From contig JADGQO010000038.1 in the NCBI GenBank assembly GCA_017881725.1, positions 8,687 to 72,686 of the forward strand: DNA of 64,000 bases, written 5' to 3'. The position numbers and the translations under genes were made by a program. Numbering within the stretch: the first letter of the stretch is position 1; each line of letters begins with the position of its first letter. The stretch comes from Fibrobacteria bacterium. GTDB lineage: Bacteria > Fibrobacterota > Fibrobacteria > UBA11236. Shown in pieces: positions 7,163 through 23,069 of this stretch. The notes below the pieces were generated by a model that was not told where the DNA came from, searched no databases, and saw nothing but the letters and a program-made list of their open reading frames with translations.

Positions 7163-7951
7163 ATGATGATGGACAAAACGACTTACTTACAGCGCAAACA
7201 ACAGGCGGAAGCGGAGCGGGCGGTTTTCAAAAAGGAGACCACCTGTTTGACCTGCCGTTGGATCCGGGAAAATTGCCTTTGCCATTTGATGAAGCCTTTC
7301 GACACGGAAACGCGTTTCGTCATCCTGATGCATCCGATGGAAGCGAAGAAGGAAAAGCTTGGGACGGGACGCATCGTCCACGCCATCGTCCAGAATTCCG
7401 AAATCATCGTCGGCATTGATTTCACGGAGGACAGACGCGTGAACGCCTTGATTCATGATCCGGAAAATTTCTGCATGGCCCTGTATCCCGGCGCAAAATC
7501 CCTGAACATTTCCAGCGATGATGTGACGCCGCTGCGCGACTCCAAAAAATCCGGCCGCCGCCTGGTGCTGTTCCTGTTGGATGGCACCTGGCAATGCGCC
7601 AAAAAAATGATCAAGCAATCGGAGAATATCCGCGGCTTGCCGCGCCTGTCCTTCTCGCCGCAGAGGGAGTCGGTATTCACCATTAAGGAACAACCGGCCG
7701 ACTTTTGTTTGTCCACCTTGGAGTCGATCCATTATTTCCTCGGCGAAGCGGACCGACGTGGATTGGAAAGCTTGCCAGGCCAACCGCAGGACAATCTCAT
7801 GGTGGTGTTCAAGCACATGATCGATTTCATGTTGGCCTGCGCGCTCGACCCCAATCGTTCCACCTATCGCCTCACCAAAACGGGATATTCCAAGAAGGAA
7901 GATCGGACGCGGCGCAAGCAGTCGATGCGGTCGATTGTGTTGTTGGATTGA
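7163..7951 (+). CDS. tapT: DTW-domain protein (tRNA-uridine aminocarboxypropyltransferase, TapT/YfiP family)
   Basis: Cys cluster CLTCRWIRENCLCH followed by LFLLDGTWQCAKKM (the DTW motif). Locally lower GC, but clean codon structure. Confidence 0.7.
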   Translation: MMMDKTTYLQRKQQAEAERAVFKKETTCLTCRWIRENCLCHLMKPFDTETRFVILMHPMEAKKEKLGTGRIVHAIVQNSEIIVGIDFTEDRRVNALIHDPENFCMALYPGAKSLNISSDDVTPLRDSKKSGRRLVLFLLDGTWQCAKKMIKQSENIRGLPRLSFSPQRESVFTIKEQPADFCLSTLESIHYFLGEADRRGLESLPGQPQDNLMVVFKHMIDFMLACALDPNRSTYRLTKTGYSKKEDRTRRKQSMRSIVLLD

Positions 7952-7961
7952 ATCGGAGCGT

Positions 7962-9128
7962 TCACCTTCGTCCCAGCGCGTCCCAGGTTTCGAACCAAGT
8001 GAACCCCGCCCGGAATTCCCCAAAGGTCTGCCGGCGGTTACGCGCATCCTGCGATTGCCCGGGAAGGAAAATCCCATCCAGATTACCGCCTAAAGTCGTA
8101 TAGAGGCCATCGTATGCGGGTTTGTATTGATAGGCCGCGTCGAGAATCAACGCGCCTCCCCAGCCCGGATAGGACGCGGGCACCCAGGACTACGCGTCGG
8201 TGAGGCCCCAAATGATGAAGGTGTTGCAATTGGAGTTCGCGAGGCAAACGGCCAGGGTCCCCTGGTAATCCTCTTTCTGTTTCTGCAAGGCCTCCGGCGT
8301 GGCGGGCAAAGGCACGCGAAAATCCACTTCGGTGAAAGCCACCTTCAGTCCCAGGGCGGCCAGGCGCTTGATGTTCGCGTCCATGTCGTCGAACCTCGGC
8401 AAGGAATCGTAACGGAAATGACATTGCAAACCCACGCCGTCGATGGGAACGCCGCGCTCCTGCAAGCCTTTGACGAGGTTGTAGGTTTTATCCGACTTGA
8501 CGCCCAGGCCTTCGTTCCAGTAGTCGTTATAAAAAAGCTGGACATCCGGATCCGCCTCGCGGGCCCATCGGAAGCACGAGTCGATGTACTCGATTCCCAT
8601 CCTGCGGAACAGGAAGGTGTCGCGGTATAGGCTGTCGGGATTATTGGAAATCGCTTCGTTGACCACGTCCCATTGCGGGATGCGCCCCTTGTAACGGCCG
8701 ACGACGGCGTGGATGTATTCCTTGAGGATGGCGAACATCGTGTCCCGGCTGAACTCCGTGGTAGCCAGGAAGCCCGCTTCCTTGTGCCAAACCAGGGTAT
8801 GGCCCCGCAGCTTCATGCCGTTCGAATCCGCGAAGGCGAGCATCTTTTCGGGGGCGGTCCAATTGTAATCCCCCCGGGTCGATTGGATCTGGCCGAATTT
8901 CATCTGGTACTCCGCCACCAGGGCGTTGAACTCCTGCTTGAGCGTGGGCCGGAAAGGCTTTCCGAAGAGGAAAGGGAGGTTATCGTGACGGATAGTACAA
9001 AAGGAATTAGGACGAGCGAAAACCGTAGGTTGCCGTTTCGCATACTTCACTCGCTGGGCGTGGATTTCGCCATTTTCAGATCCCGCCGCGAATCGTCCAC
9101 GGGATCGAGATGGATATTGATGATCCAC
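7962..9128 (-). pseudogene. GH10 endo-1,4-beta-xylanase interrupted by an in-frame TAG
   Basis: GH10 motifs: WDVVNEA (acid/base Glu), LKVAFTEVDF (nucleophile Glu), HTLVWH. The reading frame runs WGLTDA-TAG-SWVPASYPGWGGALILDAAYQYKPAY, so the stop (plus-strand cta at 8190-8192) falls in the conserved WG.TD.(Y)SW motif, where a one-base change from a tyrosine codon is the simplest explanation. The frame continues to 7962. Start is a GTG at 9128, overlapping the 3' end of the CDF gene; no signal peptide. Confidence 0.65.
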
Positions 9129-16520: not shown

Positions 16521-17705
16521 TCAGCGCTTCGGACTCGGAGCCAGGGCGTTCTGGGCCCCCGGCTTCATCAGGGACCGGTATTGTTCCACTTCGCTGCGGA
16601 GCACGGCGTCCTTGGGGCGCAAGGGCTGGGCCGGTGCGAGGATTTTCGCCGCCCGCTCATTGTCGCCTTGTTGATGGTATTCATAGGCGAGATTGCGGAG
16701 GCCTTCCAACCCTTCGGCATTGCCCGTCTTCAAGGCTTGCACATAGGCCGCCTCCGCCCGGTCCCACCAATGGGCATCGAAGGCGAGATTGCCCATGAAC
16801 ACGGCCGCGTCGGTGAAATCCGGCTTGATGGTCAACGCCTTTTGCAGAAACTCCATCGCCAGGAAAGGCTTTTTATCCTGTGCCAGCACGTCGGCGAGCT
16901 TGTACAGGTTCTCATAATCCTTTTCGCGCGTCGCTAACCCTTCGCGGTAGGCCGCCGCGGCCTGTTCCAAATCACCCTGGGATCGGTAGAGATCCCCGAT
17001 GTAAAAAACGAAATCCGTTTCCGACGGCTTGCGCGCATAAGCCTCGCGCACCAAAGCCACGGCTTCGGGGTACTCTTTCATGGACGCATGCGCCTCGGCC
17101 ATCTGATACACAATCGACAAATCCTCCGGATCCAAGGCGCGCGCTTTTTCCAGGGCTTGCAGGGACCCGACGAAATCCTTGGTGCGGCCGTAGGCATCCG
17201 CGAGATACAGCCAGGCGCTGCCGTTGTCCGGCTCCTGCTGCAAAGCGCGCCGATACGCCGCAATGGATTCGCCGTATTGCTCCAGCCGGAACAGCACGGC
17301 CGCGAGGTTGGATACGGCAGGCAAATATTTTCCGCCCGTCAGGCGTTCGGTTTTCTTGAAGGCCGCCGCCGCTTCCGGAAGCTTGTTCATGCGGTACAGG
17401 CAATTCCCGATATTGAACGCCACCGTGCCCTCGTCCGCCCCGCGCGCCTGGGCCTTGCGGTAGAGAAGCAGCGCCTTGGCGTACTCGCTTTTGTTATACA
17501 GGGCGTTGGCGCGGTTCACGAGATCGACCGCGCTTTGCGGCGAAACGCGAGATGCCGCAGCGATCGAAGAAGCCGATGCTGCTGAGGCTGACGCTGCCCC
17601 GGACAACCCGGTGGGTGAGGCTTTGGTTATTGTGGCGGACGGCGCCGGAGTCGAGGCGGAGGAAAGGAATGGGACGAAGAGGAGAATTCGGATTGCAAAA
17701 GGCAA
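16521..17705 (-). CDS. Secreted TPR-repeat protein
   Basis: Multiple TPR units (AFNIGNCLYRMNKLPEA, AWLYLADAYGRTKDF, VFYIGDLYRSQGDLEQAAAAY ...). The predicted start is the TTG at 17703-17705, giving the signal peptide MPFAIRILLFVPFLSSAS. The upstream part of the annotated ORF is the AT-rich repeat region. Confidence 0.7.
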   Translation of the reverse strand: MPFAIRILLFVPFLSSASTPAPSATITKASPTGLSGAASASAASASSIAAASRVSPQSAVDLVNRANALYNKSEYAKALLLYRKAQARGADEGTVAFNIGNCLYRMNKLPEAAAAFKKTERLTGGKYLPAVSNLAAVLFRLEQYGESIAAYRRALQQEPDNGSAWLYLADAYGRTKDFVGSLQALEKARALDPEDLSIVYQMAEAHASMKEYPEAVALVREAYARKPSETDFVFYIGDLYRSQGDLEQAAAAYREGLATREKDYENLYKLADVLAQDKKPFLAMEFLQKALTIKPDFTDAAVFMGNLAFDAHWWDRAEAAYVQALKTGNAEGLEGLRNLAYEYHQQGDNERAAKILAPAQPLRPKDAVLRSEVEQYRSLMKPGAQNALAPSPKR

Positions 17706-17851
17706 ATTGAAAATTGGAAATTGAAAATTTGAAAACCCGAATTCAAATTTCTTTGTGTCGCAAGGCCTCCGTGAGCGCGAAACCGTTTGGTATCGGAAAG
17801 CCAAAGCAGCACGGAGCCTTTCCACAATTTTCAATTTGAAATTTTCAATTT
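17704..17851. promoter_or_regulatory. AT-rich inverted-repeat array: two 26-nt arms, each with two copies of the 12-mer AAATTGAAAATT, separated by 96 nt that contain an inner GC hairpin
   Basis: Arm 1 at 17704-17729 is AAATTGAAAATT-gg-AAATTGAAAATT. Arm 2 at 17826-17851 is AATTTTCAATTT-ga-AATTTTCAATTT, its reverse complement (24/26). An inner hairpin pairs aaggcctccgtg at 17762-17773 with cacggagcctt at 17810-17820. It lies between tonB and the TPR gene and overlaps the TPR TTG start. Confidence 0.55.
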
Positions 17852-17911
17852 GCAATCCCACGTTCAATCCCACTCCTTCCCCTCCTTTCCCAACGTAACA
17901 TATCCGTTACC

Positions 17912-18550
17912 CTAATTCCCAAATTTGATTTCGAAGGGTTGTTCCAAACCGCAAAAAGCCACGGCCAATCCGCCCTTTTTAGCCGGCGTAAAGACGGTTT
18001 GCCGCAACGCCTCGCGCCCCGCCCCCGCCAAACCCAAACCCTGCGGTTTTTCTTCCATCACCCGCACGTCATAAGCATGCCCCCCCGGGTCGACGCAAAA
18101 GGACAAAACCAGATAAGCGTCCTTTTCCGCCGCCTTCACCTCCGGAGGCAACCGGAAAGGCGGAGGCATATTCGGCGCAGGCCTTTCGTCCACATCACCG
18201 CTGGGTCCGGCCGCCTGCCCGCCCCCGCCGCTGGGACGATTCACGATATCCATAGGCACCGCCGCTCCCTCCAACCCGCCCACGCTTAAATCCATGGCAA
18301 ACCTCGGCCCGGCCCTCACCGCCGCCTGCACCGGCCGCGCGCGCGTCGGCTGCTTCAATTTCCGATGCGGCTGATCCTGCGCCTGCGCCGGATCCAAGGT
18401 TTTCAACGACACTTGCGCCACAATGCGCGGCTTGCCGCTGACGCCTCCGGAATTCAAAGCATGATTCACCAGGGGTATCAACACCGTTACCCCCGCGCTC
18501 AACACCAGGGCAATCAACGCGATCACCCCATTCCGGATCACCTTCATCAA
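17912..18550 (-). CDS. tonB: TonB energy-transducer
   Basis: N-terminal TM (VIALIALVLSAGVTVLIPLV), a Pro-rich spacer (PAPNMPPPFRLPPEV) and a TonB C-terminal domain (YLVLSFCVDPGGHAYDVRVMEEK ... FEIKF). Confidence 0.8.
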   Translation of the reverse strand: MMKVIRNGVIALIALVLSAGVTVLIPLVNHALNSGGVSGKPRIVAQVSLKTLDPAQAQDQPHRKLKQPTRARPVQAAVRAGPRFAMDLSVGGLEGAAVPMDIVNRPSGGGGQAAGPSGDVDERPAPNMPPPFRLPPEVKAAEKDAYLVLSFCVDPGGHAYDVRVMEEKPQGLGLAGAGREALRQTVFTPAKKGGLAVAFCGLEQPFEIKFGN

Positions 18551-18918
18551 ACTCGCGCTCCGCTAAAAAATTTCACGCCGCTCCCCATACTTTCACCCTC
18601 TGCTCGACCCCATCTTCTCCCCGTCCCGCCCCAACGCAGCCGCGCCTCGCGCTGCGAGTCCCGTCCCGACCCACTCCCTTCTTCTCTTCTCTTCTCTTTT
18701 CTTTGTTCCCCATCCCCCGCGAGCAGAGAAAATGGCCTCCGGTCCGAGGGGCGCCCTGCCGGGAGGGGCTTTGCGGGCCGTTGGGCCTGCGCGCAGGCAT
18801 GTCCGAGCGCGTGCCCGGCGAGCGTCCACATCCTCTGGATACGCGCGAGTTCCGGAGCGCAGGCCCAACGGCCCGCAAACCCCATAATTGTGGAGCCCCC
18901 CCACCACCGACCAGGAGA

Positions 18919-19326
18919 TCATTTACTCATAGCCGCGACTGAAATCTTCTTCGCCCCCGCCAGATTGCACGCGTCCATGACGCTCACCAGCAACCCCGTA
19001 TTCGAATCGCGATCGGCGATCAGCACCACTTCGCCCAGCGCGTTCTCCGCCAGCATCCGGCGCAACACGTCCTGAAGGCTTTCCATGTCCACCTGACGTT
19101 CGTTCACGTGCACGGTGCCTTCCCGCGTGATGGCCACCAGAATGCTTTGCCGGTTCAACTCGCCGGCGGACTGGGCCTGCGGCTTGTCCACGGTCACGCC
19201 CGTTTCCTTGGTCAGCGAGGAGGTCAGGATGGTAAAAATCAGGAGCACGAACACCACGTCGATGAGCGGCACGACATTGAGTTCGAAACCACCACGTTTT
19301 TTGGTCTGGATCAGGAACGGCTCCAT
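18919..19326 (-). CDS. exbD: ExbD/TolR biopolymer transport protein
   Basis: ELNVVPLIDVVFVLLIFTIL, one TM, periplasmic domain. Confidence 0.85.
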   Translation of the reverse strand: MEPFLIQTKKRGGFELNVVPLIDVVFVLLIFTILTSSLTKETGVTVDKPQAQSAGELNRQSILVAITREGTVHVNERQVDMESLQDVLRRMLAENALGEVVLIADRDSNTGLLVSVMDACNLAGAKKISVAAMSK

Positions 19327-19962
19327 TCAGGCGCCTCCTTGTTTCGGATGGTAAATCTGGTTGAGGATCACGGTGATGCCATATTCGACCTGGACCTGCA
19401 TCCAATGCACGCGGCCTTCCAGGCGTTGCCCCAGGAGAATGAGAACGATGGCGAGCAACAATCCGCTTTGCGTGGCGATCAAGGCTTCCGAAATGCCGTG
19501 GGCCAGAAGCACGGCGTTGCCGTTGCCGTATTCCGTCATGATGCGGAAGGTATGGATGAGGCCGCTGACCGTGCCGAGCAGGCCCAGCAACGGCGCCGAG
19601 CCGGCCATCACCTTGACCAGCGGCAGGTTGCGCTCCAGTTTGAACAAGGACAGCGCGAGTTTTTCCGATAAAAGGCGGCGCAGGGCCGATTCCGGCAAGG
19701 CGCGGTTTTCCAAGGCCAGGGACAAGCCGTAACCGATAAGTTTCGGCGTCTTGCGCGCCAATTTTTCGGCGCCTTGCACGTCGCCTTTGGCCACCAAGTC
19801 CCGGATGCGATCGAATTCCGGATTCAGGTTGGTCCGCCCCAGCCCGGCCCCGAGATTGGCGTAGGTGGAGAGTACCAGGCAAAATCCCCAAAAGCCGACC
19901 AGGATGATCGGAATGAGGACGAAGCCGCCCTGGGTCCAGGTGTCGTAGATTACGGAGTACAT
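19327..19962 (-). CDS. exbB: MotA/TolQ/ExbB proton-channel protein
   Basis: AGSAPLLGLLGTVSGLIHTF and GISEALIATQSGLLLAI; three TMs. Immediately upstream of exbD. Confidence 0.85.
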   Translation of the reverse strand: MYSVIYDTWTQGGFVLIPIILVGFWGFCLVLSTYANLGAGLGRTNLNPEFDRIRDLVAKGDVQGAEKLARKTPKLIGYGLSLALENRALPESALRRLLSEKLALSLFKLERNLPLVKVMAGSAPLLGLLGTVSGLIHTFRIMTEYGNGNAVLLAHGISEALIATQSGLLLAIVLILLGQRLEGRVHWMQVQVEYGITVILNQIYHPKQGGA

Positions 19963-20166
19963 CGTCTAAATGAAAAGGCAGAGTTCAGAAGTTAAAGGGG
20001 AAAAGTTAAAAGTGAAAATCATCGGCCGTTCCTTTGTTTTGCGGTGATGACGGATTTCGCAATGATGCTTAAAAGTTCGTTTGTTTCTTGGATCGATTCG
20101 TTTAATGATCGCATCAATTGGTTTCCGATGTGCAATGCAGGATTCCTGTTCGGAAAGTCCGCAACA

Positions 20167-20331
20167 CCATTAATAATGGTTGCCGCCAGATCCAGGAGTC
20201 AACAACCACGGGCATAGCCCGTGGTTTGGGTGTCGGGCCAAAGGCCCGACACCCAATGGCGCGACAGCGCCCTTGGTGATCGTTTGCGTTGCACCCCCGT
20301 GCCGGACCTTCCGCGGTCCGCAAGCACGGGG
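20167..20331. repeat. Cluster of GC-rich perfect hairpins (REP-like) in a 500-nt non-coding gap
   Basis: A 13-bp AT palindrome ccattaataatgg at 20167-20179. A 10-bp stem aaccacgggc/gcccgtggtt at 20204-20226. A 14-bp perfect stem ttgggtgtcgggcc-aaa-ggcccgacacccaa at 20226-20256. A nested stem ccccgtgc(cggacc-ttccgc-ggtccg)caa-gcacgggg at 20295-20331. Confidence 0.5.
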
Positions 20332-20463
20332 CCCATATACAAGCCGGAGGCGTTTCCAACGCAAACAATCGACCCGCCATTTCATCCGACCAGGCTTGGG
20401 AATTGGACTTTTCCGATCCTTTTTCCCTTTGACTTTTCACATCTTCCATTTGAATTTCCACGC

Positions 20464-22116
20464 TTAGTCCTTCGGCCACACGCGATTCAACGTTTCCAAC
20501 GCGCAACTGCTCAAAGTGGCGTTGATGGTGTCGAGCCGCTCGTTCAGGAAGCCGTGGATGAGCAAAACCGGGATGGCGATGGCCAGGCCCGTTTCCGTGT
20601 TGACCAGCGCTTCGGAAATGCCGCCGGCCAAAACCTTCGGGTCGTTGGCGCCCAGTTGGTTCAGGACTTTGAACAAGGTGACCAGGCCGCTGACCGTGCC
20701 CAACAGGCCCAGCAGCGGGGCCGCCGCGCCCATGGCGGCAATCAGGGGAAGGCGTTTTTCCAAGGCGGGAACCTCCCGCAGCATGGCTTCGCGCACGGCT
20801 TTTTCCGCCGTGTCGCGGCTTTGATCGGCGTGGGCGGCCAATGCCCCCAAGGTGCGCGCCAGGGCGCTGCCGGAAGCGTCGCACAGCCGCTTGGCTTCCG
20901 ACCATTTTTTTTGGTCTACCAGGGCCAGAAACTTTTTCATGAACCGGGGCGCGTTGACGCTCTTGCGGGTGAAATAAATCAGGCGCTCCAGGATCATGAG
21001 CAGGGACAGGATGCCCACGGCGAACAGGGGATACAAGGTCGGGCCGCCGGCTTTGAACCAGACGGCTACGCGTTTCTGCCAGGAAAGTTCCACTCCCTTC
21101 ACGAAACCGGAGCCAAGGCTTTTGTATTGCAATACGTCCATGGGCAAAGTCGCAACGACTTTGCCTTGGGCCGCGTCGCTGATGGCCGACGCCAAGGCGG
21201 CGTTGAACCCCTGGGCCAAGTCCGAGCGCCAGACGAAGGTTTTGCCTTGCAGATTCCCGGTGCGTAACAGGATTTGCGATTCCGCGGTTTTGCCCGCGCC
21301 GGCCGCGACTGCGGGTGTACCTGAGGCCGCAGAGCCCGCGTTGTCCGAGCTCGTGGCTCCGTTCTTCTCCAGCTCGCCGATGAACACCGTGCCCAATTGC
21401 AATCGCCAGGCTTCGGCCGAACGCCCCTGTCCGAAAACCGCTTGCCGCGAGGTGAGGCTTTGCGACTGCGTCAGATCCACGCGCGACAAAGTCACGCCCA
21501 GGAATTCGCGCAGCGCGCCGTCCGTGGCGGAAAAATCGTCCCTGGATATTCCGAGTCCGGGCCTGCCCCCGTTTTCCTTCCCGCTATTTTCCTTGGCGCC
21601 CGACTCCTTACCGGTTTTATCCGCCAGCAAACTTCCTGCATGCGACAGGCGCAGATTCCGTTCTTCAATCCCCACGGGGATGTCCGAAGCCAGATTATCG
21701 GAAGCAGCGTCCACGGCGCGTTTCAAGGCGGCGTTGAATCCATCCCATCCCGATTGGATCGCGGCGGCTTCATCCGCTTTATCCTTGGTCTCGCCCTTGG
21801 CTTTGATCAATTCATCTTCCAAACGCGTCAGGTCCGAGGCGAGGCGGCCGTATTTTTCCTCCAGTTGGCGGGCCTTTTCGTCCGCGTCCTTGGCATGGGC
21901 GGCTTGGCGATAGCGCGCGTCCCAACGTTCAGCTTCTTTCTTTTCAAGCGCGTCCAGCTTCTCGGCCTTGAGGTTTTCCACCGAGGTCAGTTCGCGTTGA
22001 ACGTCTTCCAGGGCCTTGCGTTTGGCCGCGTCGGGATCGTCCTTGGCGAAAACGGGCGTGAAGGCCGTTGCGAGACCCAGCGCGAGGCAACCGAAAAATG
22101 CGTGTCTGAGGTTCAT
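20464..22116 (-). CDS. MotA/TolQ/ExbB-family protein with a ~320-aa periplasmic coiled-coil N-terminal domain
   Basis: Signal peptide, long charged/coiled region, then TM (LYPLFAVGILSLLMILERLIYF) and an ExbB core (AAPLLGLLGTVSGLVTLFKVL, GISEALVNTETGLAIAIPVLL). The start overlaps the upstream stop (TAATG). Confidence 0.75.
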   Translation of the reverse strand: MNLRHAFFGCLALGLATAFTPVFAKDDPDAAKRKALEDVQRELTSVENLKAEKLDALEKKEAERWDARYRQAAHAKDADEKARQLEEKYGRLASDLTRLEDELIKAKGETKDKADEAAAIQSGWDGFNAALKRAVDAASDNLASDIPVGIEERNLRLSHAGSLLADKTGKESGAKENSGKENGGRPGLGISRDDFSATDGALREFLGVTLSRVDLTQSQSLTSRQAVFGQGRSAEAWRLQLGTVFIGELEKNGATSSDNAGSAASGTPAVAAGAGKTAESQILLRTGNLQGKTFVWRSDLAQGFNAALASAISDAAQGKVVATLPMDVLQYKSLGSGFVKGVELSWQKRVAVWFKAGGPTLYPLFAVGILSLLMILERLIYFTRKSVNAPRFMKKFLALVDQKKWSEAKRLCDASGSALARTLGALAAHADQSRDTAEKAVREAMLREVPALEKRLPLIAAMGAAAPLLGLLGTVSGLVTLFKVLNQLGANDPKVLAGGISEALVNTETGLAIAIPVLLIHGFLNERLDTINATLSSCALETLNRVWPKD

Positions 22117-23069
22117 TACTTGCCTCCCTTCGGCGCGATGCCCAGGTTAAGCGTGGCCAATTGCGGCGGACGCTTGGCGGCCTTGATTTCCAGGGCGGCG
22201 CGGATTTGGTTTTTCTCCGCGAAGGATGGATCCTCGCGCCAGTCCCACCCAGTCATGGAAGTGGATGTGGTTGCGGATGCGGATGCGGATGCGGATGCCG
22301 CCGTGCCGGGGGTTCCGGTGACTCCCGGTTTCCGTTCCAGGATGCCGAAGTGCTGGCCTTCCTCGTCCATGTAAACGAGCCATTGATTTCCGACTTTGAG
22401 CAATTGGGCGTTGACCACCTCGCCGTTTTTGCGCGTGACGGGTTTGTTGATGAGGGCGATTTCATCGCCGTTTTTGATCTCCTCTTTGAGGACGGCGTTG
22501 AGGCGCGCGAAGCCTTCGTCCACCGTCGCCGCGCCGGATTCCAAATCCTTGCGCAACGCTTTCACACGATCGAGGCGGGCCTCATTGTCCCAGGGCAGGC
22601 CTTCGCCAATGCGTCGGGCCAGGGAATCGCAGAACCCGGCCAAGGTCAGGGACAGGTTCTTTTGCCGGACCTTGATTTCCTCCACGGTATTTTGCCGGCG
22701 GCTTTGCTGACCGCGCTCGGCGGCGATTTTGGCTTGCGCCTCCTGAATGCGCGTTTGCAACGCGGCGTTTTCTTTTTCGCGGCGTTCGTGATCCTTGGAT
22801 GCGCGATCCACGGATTGGGACGCACGGGCGGCCTCATCGGCGATCAAGGAGTCGGTCTTGCGCAGGTCGGCGTCGGCCTTGGCGAGTTCTTTTTTGGCTT
22901 GCGCCAAATCGGATTTGGCTTTTTGCAAGTCCGCGTCGACATGGGAAGCGGCGGTCTCCTGGGCGACCGGTGCGTTGGGTAACAGGGAGGTTACGCAAAT
23001 CGCCAACGCGGTTATGATCAGGACGCGCGCCAGCGGATGCGGGGCGGAAGATTTTTTTTCATGTCCCAT
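22116..23069 (-). CDS. Secreted coiled-coil protein with an Ala/Ser/Thr repeat tract
   Basis: Start at MGHEKK (23067-23069) with GAGGAG 7 nt upstream. Signal peptide ARVLIITALAICVTSLL, then heptad-like charged repeats. ASASASASATTSTS is encoded by the hexamer repeat at 22261-22296. Confidence 0.6.
   Translation of the reverse strand: MGHEKKSSAPHPLARVLIITALAICVTSLLPNAPVAQETAASHVDADLQKAKSDLAQAKKELAKADADLRKTDSLIADEAARASQSVDRASKDHERREKENAALQTRIQEAQAKIAAERGQQSRRQNTVEEIKVRQKNLSLTLAGFCDSLARRIGEGLPWDNEARLDRVKALRKDLESGAATVDEGFARLNAVLKEEIKNGDEIALINKPVTRKNGEVVNAQLLKVGNQWLVYMDEEGQHFGILERKPGVTGTPGTAASASASASATTSTSMTGWDWREDPSFAEKNQIRAALEIKAAKRPPQLATLNLGIAPKGGK
22261..22296. repeat. In-frame hexanucleotide microsatellite (GYGGAT)x6, with four perfect gcggat units
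   Basis: gtggat gtggtt gcggat gcggat gcggat gcggat. It lies inside the coiled-coil protein gene (minus strand, encoding the AS repeats). Confidence 0.7.

Follow-up and report, generated by a model that had tools for sequence, protein, structure and literature searches.

A probable IVS-type palindromic element of inverted heptamer arrays between tonB and a TPR gene in a Fibrobacteria bacterium

Intervening sequences (IVSs) in bacterial 23S rRNA are the closest described counterparts of the element reported here. In Coxiella burnetii, the terminal repeats of the IVS pair into a stem of 28 bp that has a bulge and one mismatch, and contain two to three tandem GACAGAT heptamers in strain-variable number, as well as a degenerate heptamer immediately ahead of the S23p start codon (PMC4990558). 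RNase III cleaves this RNA at the first repeat, the open reading frame (ORF) is decaying, and the authors regarded the IVS as a selfish element whose RNA is more important than its protein; long near-perfect duplexes of this kind are cut by RNase III in every IVS tested (PMC4990558). Intergenic heptameric repeats are a known, unexplained class of their own, which includes the Calothrix repeats (PMC4679880, PMC4692102). Heptamers were described as the most over-represented long simple sequence repeat (SSR) class in bacteria, with variable copy number (Mrazek 2007, as cited in PMC4679880 and PMC4692102), and inverted pairs of heptamer arrays were noted in Xanthomonas (PMC4692102). Here, a 64,000-nt stretch of a Fibrobacteria contig (JADGQO010000038.1), referred to as the window, was analyzed with regard to a palindromic element located between tonB and the gene of a tetratricopeptide repeat (TPR) protein, for which an earlier annotation of the same DNA (the original prediction) had proposed a regulatory role.

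Similar to the 23S rRNA IVSs of Coxiella burnetii and Leptospira (PMC4990558), the element has a stem of about 28 bp with one to two imperfections that is formed by its inverted ends, this stem consists of tandem heptamers variable in copy number and sequence, the element is part of a longer transcript, and a sibling in the same operon as well as relatives carry a PF05635 gene. Unlike these IVSs, it is found not in rRNA but between two protein-coding genes within an operon, its loop contains no ORF, it overlaps a protein-coding start, and its excision by RNase III would be expected by analogy only. As an ORF in the loop and a location in rRNA, two textbook features of IVSs, are both absent, the element is not a classical IVS. 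With at least two tandem 7-nt units outside conserved coding sequence it also belongs to the heptameric SSRs, such as those of Calothrix, TAACTGA in Beggiatoaceae (PMC4679880) and GGGAATC in Xanthomonas and Nostoc (PMC4692102), with which it shares two to many tandem 7-nt units, an intergenic position often adjoining start codons, a scattered phylogeny and occasional inverted stem-loop pairs. However, those studies describe single arrays of one heptamer with no link to PF05635, whereas here an inverted pair surrounds a core and the heptamer is changeable. The element also resembles miniature inverted-repeat transposable elements (MITEs) and repetitive extragenic palindromes/bacterial interspersed mosaic elements (REP-BIME) in being a short, non-autonomous-looking palindrome in transcribed intergenic space that is patchy among close relatives and whose ends recur in a longer, ORF-bearing relative within one genome. 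In contrast to these, no transposase is involved, the associated gene encodes a small four-helix-bundle protein, tandem repeats take the place of a fixed terminal sequence at the ends, and no target-site duplication was seen. Finally, RNase III-processed intercistronic hairpins also present a long near-perfect duplex between cistrons and could set separate upstream and downstream levels, although the duplex of the element derives from a repeat element and not from a dedicated site, and its function is putative. Taken together, we consider the feature to be probably an ORF-less IVS-type palindromic element, and not a dedicated thermometer or operator.

Arm structure and arm co-evolution in related loci

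The two arms, which read GCAAATTGAAAATTGGAAATTGAAAATT (17702-17729) and AATTTTCAATTTGAAATTTTCAATTTGC (17826-17853) on the plus strand, are 28 nt long, 93% complementary and separated by 96 nt, which confirms the near-perfect AT-rich inverted repeat of the original prediction. When one 7-nt indel is allowed the repeat reaches 17690/17858, and a weaker extension at 70-76% complementarity can be followed outward to 17661/17890. The repeat unit had been taken to be a 12-mer; Tandem Repeats Finder, however, gives a period of 7 (4.4-4.6 copies per arm), corresponding to four AAATTGN heptamers in each arm. The 12-mer itself, AAATTGAAAATT, occurs in four exact copies plus one with one mismatch, all within the element and none elsewhere in the 64 kb. 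Its chance expectation is 0.52 and five copies were reached in 0 of 100 shuffles, in line with the earlier view that these copies are not due to chance. The mean GC content of the window is ~0.59, not ~62% as had been stated.

The second, GC-rich stem that had been described inside the repeat (17762-17773/17810-17821) is present as a repeat and is also formed in the predicted fold. Folding of the minus-strand RNA from 17680 to 17880 (201 nt), a check suggested in the original prediction, gave a predicted arm-to-arm structure of -65.2 kcal/mol (z = -3.5), and a 240-nt version one of -86.8 kcal/mol (z = -4.4), whereby -25.3 kcal/mol are predicted for the arm duplex by itself.

For a comparison with related loci, TPR homologues with 76-85% identity were recovered together with their upstream DNA; a metagenome scan with the TPR protein yielded four close loci, and further loci were fetched singly. 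Five related Fibrobacteria contigs (L122, L140, L142, L143, and L144) have an identically laid-out element between tonB and the TPR gene, so that the lack of conservation in relatives, which had been named as an observation that would speak against a functional element, is not what is found. Three other loci (L123, L124, and L125) represent empty sites, in which the TPR gene starts 7-11 nt after the tonB stop codon. The heptamers of the orthologues differ from those of the window and include, among others, AATGCAA/AAGTCAA, AAATGAA/AAGTGAA, and AGTGCAA. All six elements, including the one of the window, fold arm-to-arm (z = -2.6 to -8.2).

If both arms drifted independently, each would be expected to be equally complementary to its own and to a foreign partner. 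The A-rich arm of each of the six elements was paired with the U-rich arm of every element, and the true own-arm pairing proved to be the best of all 720 possible assignments, both by duplex energy and by Watson-Crick matches. The mean duplex energy was -31.2 kcal/mol for own arms vs. -20.6 kcal/mol for other arms, with 22.5 vs. 19.7 Watson-Crick matches out of 24; for the element of the window, 22 of 24 positions match between its two arms, compared to 17-19 of 24 with the arms of other orthologues. RNAalifold, applied to a MAFFT alignment, recovers the arm helix with 28 pairs, seven of which show changes on both sides (e.g., CG:3/AU:2 and AU:2/GC:2/UA:1). The covariation that had been suggested as a further check is therefore present. 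The higher complementarity of own compared to foreign arms suggests either that pairing was under selection or that one arm was homogenised against the other. As judged from the six sequences, arm pairing has been maintained in evolution while the heptamer sequence drifted.

Either of these two processes makes a sequence-specific operator unlikely. According to this interpretation, which goes back to the four-site operator for an AT-binding regulator in the original prediction, the four heptamer or 12-mer copies would be binding sites for an AT-hook protein or another regulator of the TonB operon, and symmetric, AT-rich, repeated sites beside exbB-exbD-tonB are indeed what would be expected for it. 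However, the presumed site differs between orthologues (AAATTGA, AAATGAA, AATGCAA, AAGTGAA) with complementarity kept, sites spaced by 7 bp are not in helical phase, and there is no adjacent regulator gene. The element is located downstream of tonB within the operon instead of at a promoter, and a promoter scan around it did not find any sigma-70-like promoter. We thus regard an operator as highly improbable. A sigma-70 promoter built from TTGAAAA repeats (TTGAAA-N17-GAAAAT, which suits a regular array) was considered as a separate candidate and rejected, as the irregular array of the window contains no match.

PF05635 genes and the distribution of inverted heptamer arrays

In three of the element-bearing relatives (L122, L143, and L144), the gap between the large exbB-family gene and exbB of the same operon holds a gene of the family PF05635, the "23S rRNA intervening-sequence protein" (IVP), a four-helix-bundle protein. 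This gene is flanked by inverted heptamer arrays in L143 (AGAGTTCAAAAGTCAAAGTTCAAAGTGCAAAATGCAAAG ... TTTTGCACTTTGACTTTTGCACTTTGAACTTTGAC) and L122 (AAGTCAAAATTCAAAATGCAAAAGTCAAAATGCAAAATGAAG ... TTTTGCCTTTTGCATTTTGCCTTTTGCATTTTGAC), and in these sibling elements it starts beside the last heptamer. The right end of the L144 element, GATTTTCAATTTTCAATTTTCAATTTGC, has the same heptamer as the window, its right arm matching the window arm at 23 of 24 positions. Within one genome, the arms of the ORF-bearing and the ORF-less element match each other best, with 23/24 and 23/24 for L122, and 22/24 and 24/24 for L143.

The window itself contains a second, decayed element of this family in the corresponding gap (19963-20463). 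Both of its ends are degenerate with a period of 7 (A-rich ~20395-20462, T-rich ~19975-20030), and a truncated PF05635 pseudogene (20022-20186, tblastn E = 3e-8) is found inside, together with a GC hairpin of 14 perfect base pairs (20226-20256) and an inverted repeat of 14 nt (20278-20291/20357-20370). In L122, L143, and L144, this gap holds an intact version of the element. The 64-kb window contains only one intact and one decayed copy. A contig of 1432 nt from the Logan collection (L121, SRR10489815) encodes an identical ExbD and the same IVP remnant, which indicates that the source population is present in the SRR10489815 sample. It was the sole exact match to the ExbD of the window, and the TonB of the window had no exact match.

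Bracketing arrays were also found at PF05635 genes outside this lineage. On four unrelated long contigs (L145, L149, L152, and L153), these genes are bracketed by inverted heptamer arrays with 17-18 of 18 matches and with heptamers as different as GTCAAAA/GGCAAAA, GAATGCA (seven copies), AAATTGA-type, and AAATTGT-type. The same applies to two Patescibacteria contigs (L110 and L106), as judged by eye. All eight PF05635 genes for which both flanks were available have such arrays. The membership of the tonB/TPR palindrome in this widespread family linked to PF05635 and 23S rRNA IVSs, as well as the presence of the decayed copy in this operon at a distance of 2 kb, had been missed in the original prediction. 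Some further observations concern the PF05635 loci. In L145, a separate array of ~170 nt made of CTGCCTT/CTGCTTA units (~1040-1200) follows right after the right arm of the IVP element, before a NiFe-hydrogenase gene. PF05635 relatives were not found on viral contigs by the method used. Most of the PF05635 homologues listed lie on very short contigs (0.5-2 kb), the median contig of the collection being short as well; breakage of assemblies at the hairpin ends would fit this.

A scan for AAATTGNAAATTNNAAATTGNAAATT with one genome per species returned at least 120 loci. Among the matches listed, this type of array is present in Patescibacteria, Bacteroidales, Planctomycetota, Thermoanaerobaculia, Acidobacteria, Verrucomicrobiota, Gemmatimonadota, cyanobacteria, and others, with the arrays of high-GC loci forming isolated AT-rich islands at gene boundaries. 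The layout of the window, namely array, GC-rich spacer and inverted array, recurs among these matches in L006, L010, L035, L071, L081, L114, and L119, of which L114 is an ORF-less pair inside an operon, between the genes for the alpha (atpA) and gamma (atpG) subunits of ATP synthase. For the 34 listed arrays at GC >= 0.5, an inverted partner within 400 nt was found in 12 cases and a direct one in four, and 11 of the 12 inverted pairs follow the order of the window, A-rich then T-rich. At GC < 0.5 (L001-L120 listed) the opposite order, T-rich then A-rich, is more common (11 vs. 4, compared to 1 vs. 11 at high GC), and this reversed bias in AT-rich genomes may partly be low-complexity noise at the threshold used.

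Two side observations were made during this survey. An (AAATTGC/AAATTTC) array in L005 (2878-2930) apparently lies inside and in frame with a Planctomycete coding region (flank ...ADKRALIRRVTFDLIGLPPTPEE...), representing either a coding insertion or an assembly join. In Bacteroidales and Tidjanibacter loci, several different short arrays with the units AAATTGA, TAATCAC, GTCGTCG, TAGGGCGTT, and GGACAAT stand side by side in one gap (L038 7360-7560, L055 40-240, and L063 ~7850-8000).

The distribution of the arrays also bears on the possibility that the element is a passive SSR, in which slippage made the heptamer arrays, template switching at the hairpin made the inverted copy, the whole is neutral, and the IVP link reflects nothing but shared intergenic space. 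In favor of this, heptamers were reported to be over-represented and variable in copy number (Mrazek 2007, as cited in PMC4679880 and PMC4692102), inverted pairs were noted in Xanthomonas, and 22 of the 34 listed AAATTGN arrays at GC >= 0.5 are unpaired. However, the inverted arrays at eight of eight PF05635 genes, the arms common to the ORF-bearing and ORF-less copies of one genome, the nearly uniform order of the 12 listed high-GC pairs, and the compensatory changes between arms speak against it. A purely passive origin therefore appears quite improbable.

Operon context and the start of the TPR gene

On the minus strand, the operon comprises a large exbB-family gene, exbB, exbD, tonB, and the TPR gene, with the element occupying the last junction (Table 1). 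A small stem similar to the one behind the tonB stop codon of the window is found at this position in several element-bearing orthologues. As further observations on this operon, the exbD-tonB gap of L144 (1427-1702) is 270 nt of very GC-rich sequence with the G-run motifs GGGGTTGGGGTC and GGATGGGGTTTGGG, whereas the corresponding gap of the window (18551-18918) has a different sequence without this stretch; a (GGATGC)x6 hexamer tandem repeat lies at 22263-22298, ~150 nt upstream of the large exbB start.

Table 1. Positions of the element, its parts and the surrounding operon in the window.
Feature	Position	Strand	Remarks
5' (distal, A-rich) arm on the operon transcript	17826..17853	-	Reads GCAAATTGAAAATTTCAAATTGAAAATT, four AAATTGN heptamers; extended arm to 17858
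3' (proximal, U-rich) arm on the transcript	17702..17729	-	Reads AATTTTCAATTTCCAATTTTCAATTTGC; contains TTG 17705-17703; extended arm 17690-17735
Spacer, GC-richer, 96 nt	17730..17825	-	Loop of the large hairpin, with a stem of its own inside
Outer 3' extension of the helix, pyrimidine-rich	17661..17695	-	TPR frame reads IRILLFVPFLSSAS, hydrophobic core of a likely signal peptide
Outer 5' extension of the helix, purine-rich (GGAAAGGAGGGGAAGGA)	17865..17890	-	Shine-Dalgarno-like, immediately 5' of in-frame GTG 17873
Small hairpin GTAAC-ATATCC-GTTAC	17895..17910	-	Directly 3' of the tonB stop; read from the sequence
Second, decayed element of the same family	19963..20463	-	Gap between large exbB and exbB, 500 nt; degenerate period-7 AT-rich ends
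Large ExbB-family gene	20464-22116	-	
exbB	19327-19962	-	
exbD	18919-19326	-	
tonB (TonB_C domain)	17912..18550	-	Cistron upstream of the element
TPR protein gene, longest ORF	16521..17873	-	Frame open throughout the element; public annotation starts at 17519 (P0001, 332 aa)

The TTG at 17705 had been regarded as the only possible start of the TPR protein. Since the frame is open up to 17873, three additional in-frame candidates exist, namely GTG 17873, which is preceded by GGAAAGGAGGGGAAGGA, TTG 17834, and GTG 17825. The publicly annotated protein (P0001), which begins with MNRANALY at 17519, lacks the signal peptide present in all homologues; the annotated protein is probably too short, and its start was probably miscalled on account of the repeat element. 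In all six element loci, the TPR frame is free of stop codons between a start codon within the final heptamers of the A-rich arm and the conserved SPxQSAVDLVNRAN block, whereas the remaining two frames contain two to five stops each over the same interval. The distance from start to this anchor varies between 68 and 92 codons, and all of the indels responsible, which are of many sizes, preserve the frame. The starts encoded by the arms are MQKSKVK, MKNSKVK, MKKSKVK, and MQKSKLK, which corresponds to an M(K/Q)(K/N)SK(V/L)K start conserved in four loci, while L143 has a GTG and the window GTG/TTG. In the element-bearing proteins, the T-rich arm together with its 3' flank encodes the sole hydrophobic segment at the N-terminus (e.g., FHFSLFIFHFSFCILSSLTFA; FAIRILLFVPFLSSAS in the window). 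Since element-free TPR homologues have ordinary signal peptides, the 3' side of the element, at least, appears to have been absorbed into the gene, and the element thus seems to be partly absorbed into a protein-coding start.

These observations might imply that the element is now mainly coding, i.e., the 5' part of the TPR gene with its start in the spacer or the A-rich arm, the latter arm encoding a Lys-rich N-terminus, the T-rich arm contributing the hydrophobic stretch to a long signal peptide or anchor, and the inverted repeat being a relic with no role as RNA. The stop-free frame, the frame-preserving indels, the conserved start and the otherwise missing hydrophobic segment are all in accordance with this. 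A relic, however, would be expected to degenerate, whereas the arms co-vary and have kept their complementarity; around IVP genes, these arms are found in a non-coding setting. In addition, the window arm contains no ATG but only GTG and TTG, translation could in fact begin at ATG or GTG codons of the spacer, so that the open-frame argument is weakened, and the publicly annotated start (P0001) lies far downstream. A mainly coding role hence seems unlikely.

Every candidate start of the window lies in or beside predicted paired sequence. In the original prediction, pairing of the arms was proposed to sequester the TPR initiation region. That a maintained helix can form on the operon transcript and includes the 5' end of the TPR cistron is supported by the data presented above; because the helix necessarily involves this end, it could occlude or separate the initiation region. 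A dedicated cis-regulatory RNA, i.e., a hairpin that hides the initiation region and opens on a temperature change or on upstream translation, would explain why pairing is strong and maintained and why all four candidate starts lie in or near it. Nevertheless, the arms are predicted to pair with a probability of 0.72 at 37 C, which hardly changes up to 55 C (0.70) and is still 0.59 at 65 C, and this stability makes a thermometer implausible. A search for a GC stem-loop directly followed by a U run gave no terminator-like site in 17300-18300, which speaks against the attenuator that had been considered, and the inner GC stem lies ~30 nt away from the U-rich arm. A permissive Rfam scan of 17400-18200 returned chance-level matches only (best 16 bits vs. 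gathering thresholds of 55-191). Furthermore, the close relatives L123-L125 manage without the element, and elements of this type stand beside unrelated genes in many phyla, which is a better fit to a selfish element. We therefore consider a thermometer or attenuator rather improbable.

Proposed mechanism and implications

If the element is of the IVS type, its family would consist of two inverted arrays of 7-nt repeats around a GC-rich core, which in full-length members carries a PF05635 (S23p) gene. An ancestor of a Fibrobacteria sub-lineage would have acquired the element at the tonB/TPR junction, from where it would have been inherited in place, the arm sequences drifting with their complementarity kept. 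On the exbB-exbD-tonB-TPR transcript, the arms are predicted to form a helix of ~28-34 bp that closes the GC hairpin. By analogy with 23S rRNA IVSs, this long near-perfect duplex might be cut by RNase III, which would sever the TPR part of the message or down-tune it relative to tonB; alternatively, the helix would at least hide the TPR start. Since RNase III cuts such duplexes in every IVS tested, the most likely consequence would be that the message is cleaved between tonB and TPR, or at least that the TPR start is occluded. Either of them would uncouple cistrons that are only 7-11 nt apart in element-free relatives. The host would have accommodated the insertion in that the TPR frame runs through it and its T-rich side supplies the hydrophobic core of the signal peptide.

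Several points weigh against this interpretation. The co-evolution of the arms could result from gene conversion within the element or from template switching instead of selection on the RNA, and a comparison of filled and empty junctions revealed neither a target-site duplication nor any other trace of insertion. The spacer (17730-17825) has no PF05635 ORF and showed no similarity to IVP proteins in tblastn searches, so that descent from an ORF-bearing copy would be read from the shared arms. The link between IVSs/PF05635 and heptamers was obtained with a small, non-random sample, i.e., homologues 47-55% identical to one query, with no control genes. Moreover, the proposed cleavage by RNase III is purely an analogy with rRNA IVSs, and a cut halfway along the stem would remove starts in the 5' arm or spacer, which is awkward in view of the conserved open frame.

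In a wider perspective, heptamer-array palindromes and the PF05635 gene might be one widespread selfish family residing in transcribed spacers (operon junctions, 5' leaders, and rRNA) of many phyla. ORF-bearing and ORF-less copies would be matched by heptamer within each genome, similar to a transposon and its MITEs, and the family would explain much of the bacterial heptamer excess and could be recruited to encode protein, in the present case a signal peptide. We put this generalization forward as a tentative possibility. In the open-access literature, no paper linking IVSs to heptameric repeats outside rRNA was found, which does not prove novelty, and a search for PF05635 in connection with repeats yielded only papers on Avd of diversity-generating retroelements (DGRs) and the one on the Coxiella IVS.

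For the operon studied here, the consequence is modest, as TPR expression is probably uncoupled from that of tonB, if the analogy with rRNA IVSs applies. Beyond this, a single operon lineage displays the element type in three states, namely gene-bearing, decayed, and as a gene-less hairpin. 23S rRNA IVSs and the bacterial heptamer excess are two old observations that lack an explanation. Should the link between them be general, it would provide a testable model of how IVSs spread and persist, it would define a class of RNase III substrates in mRNAs, and it would mean that gene starts adjoining such arrays are often miscalled, as with this TPR gene.

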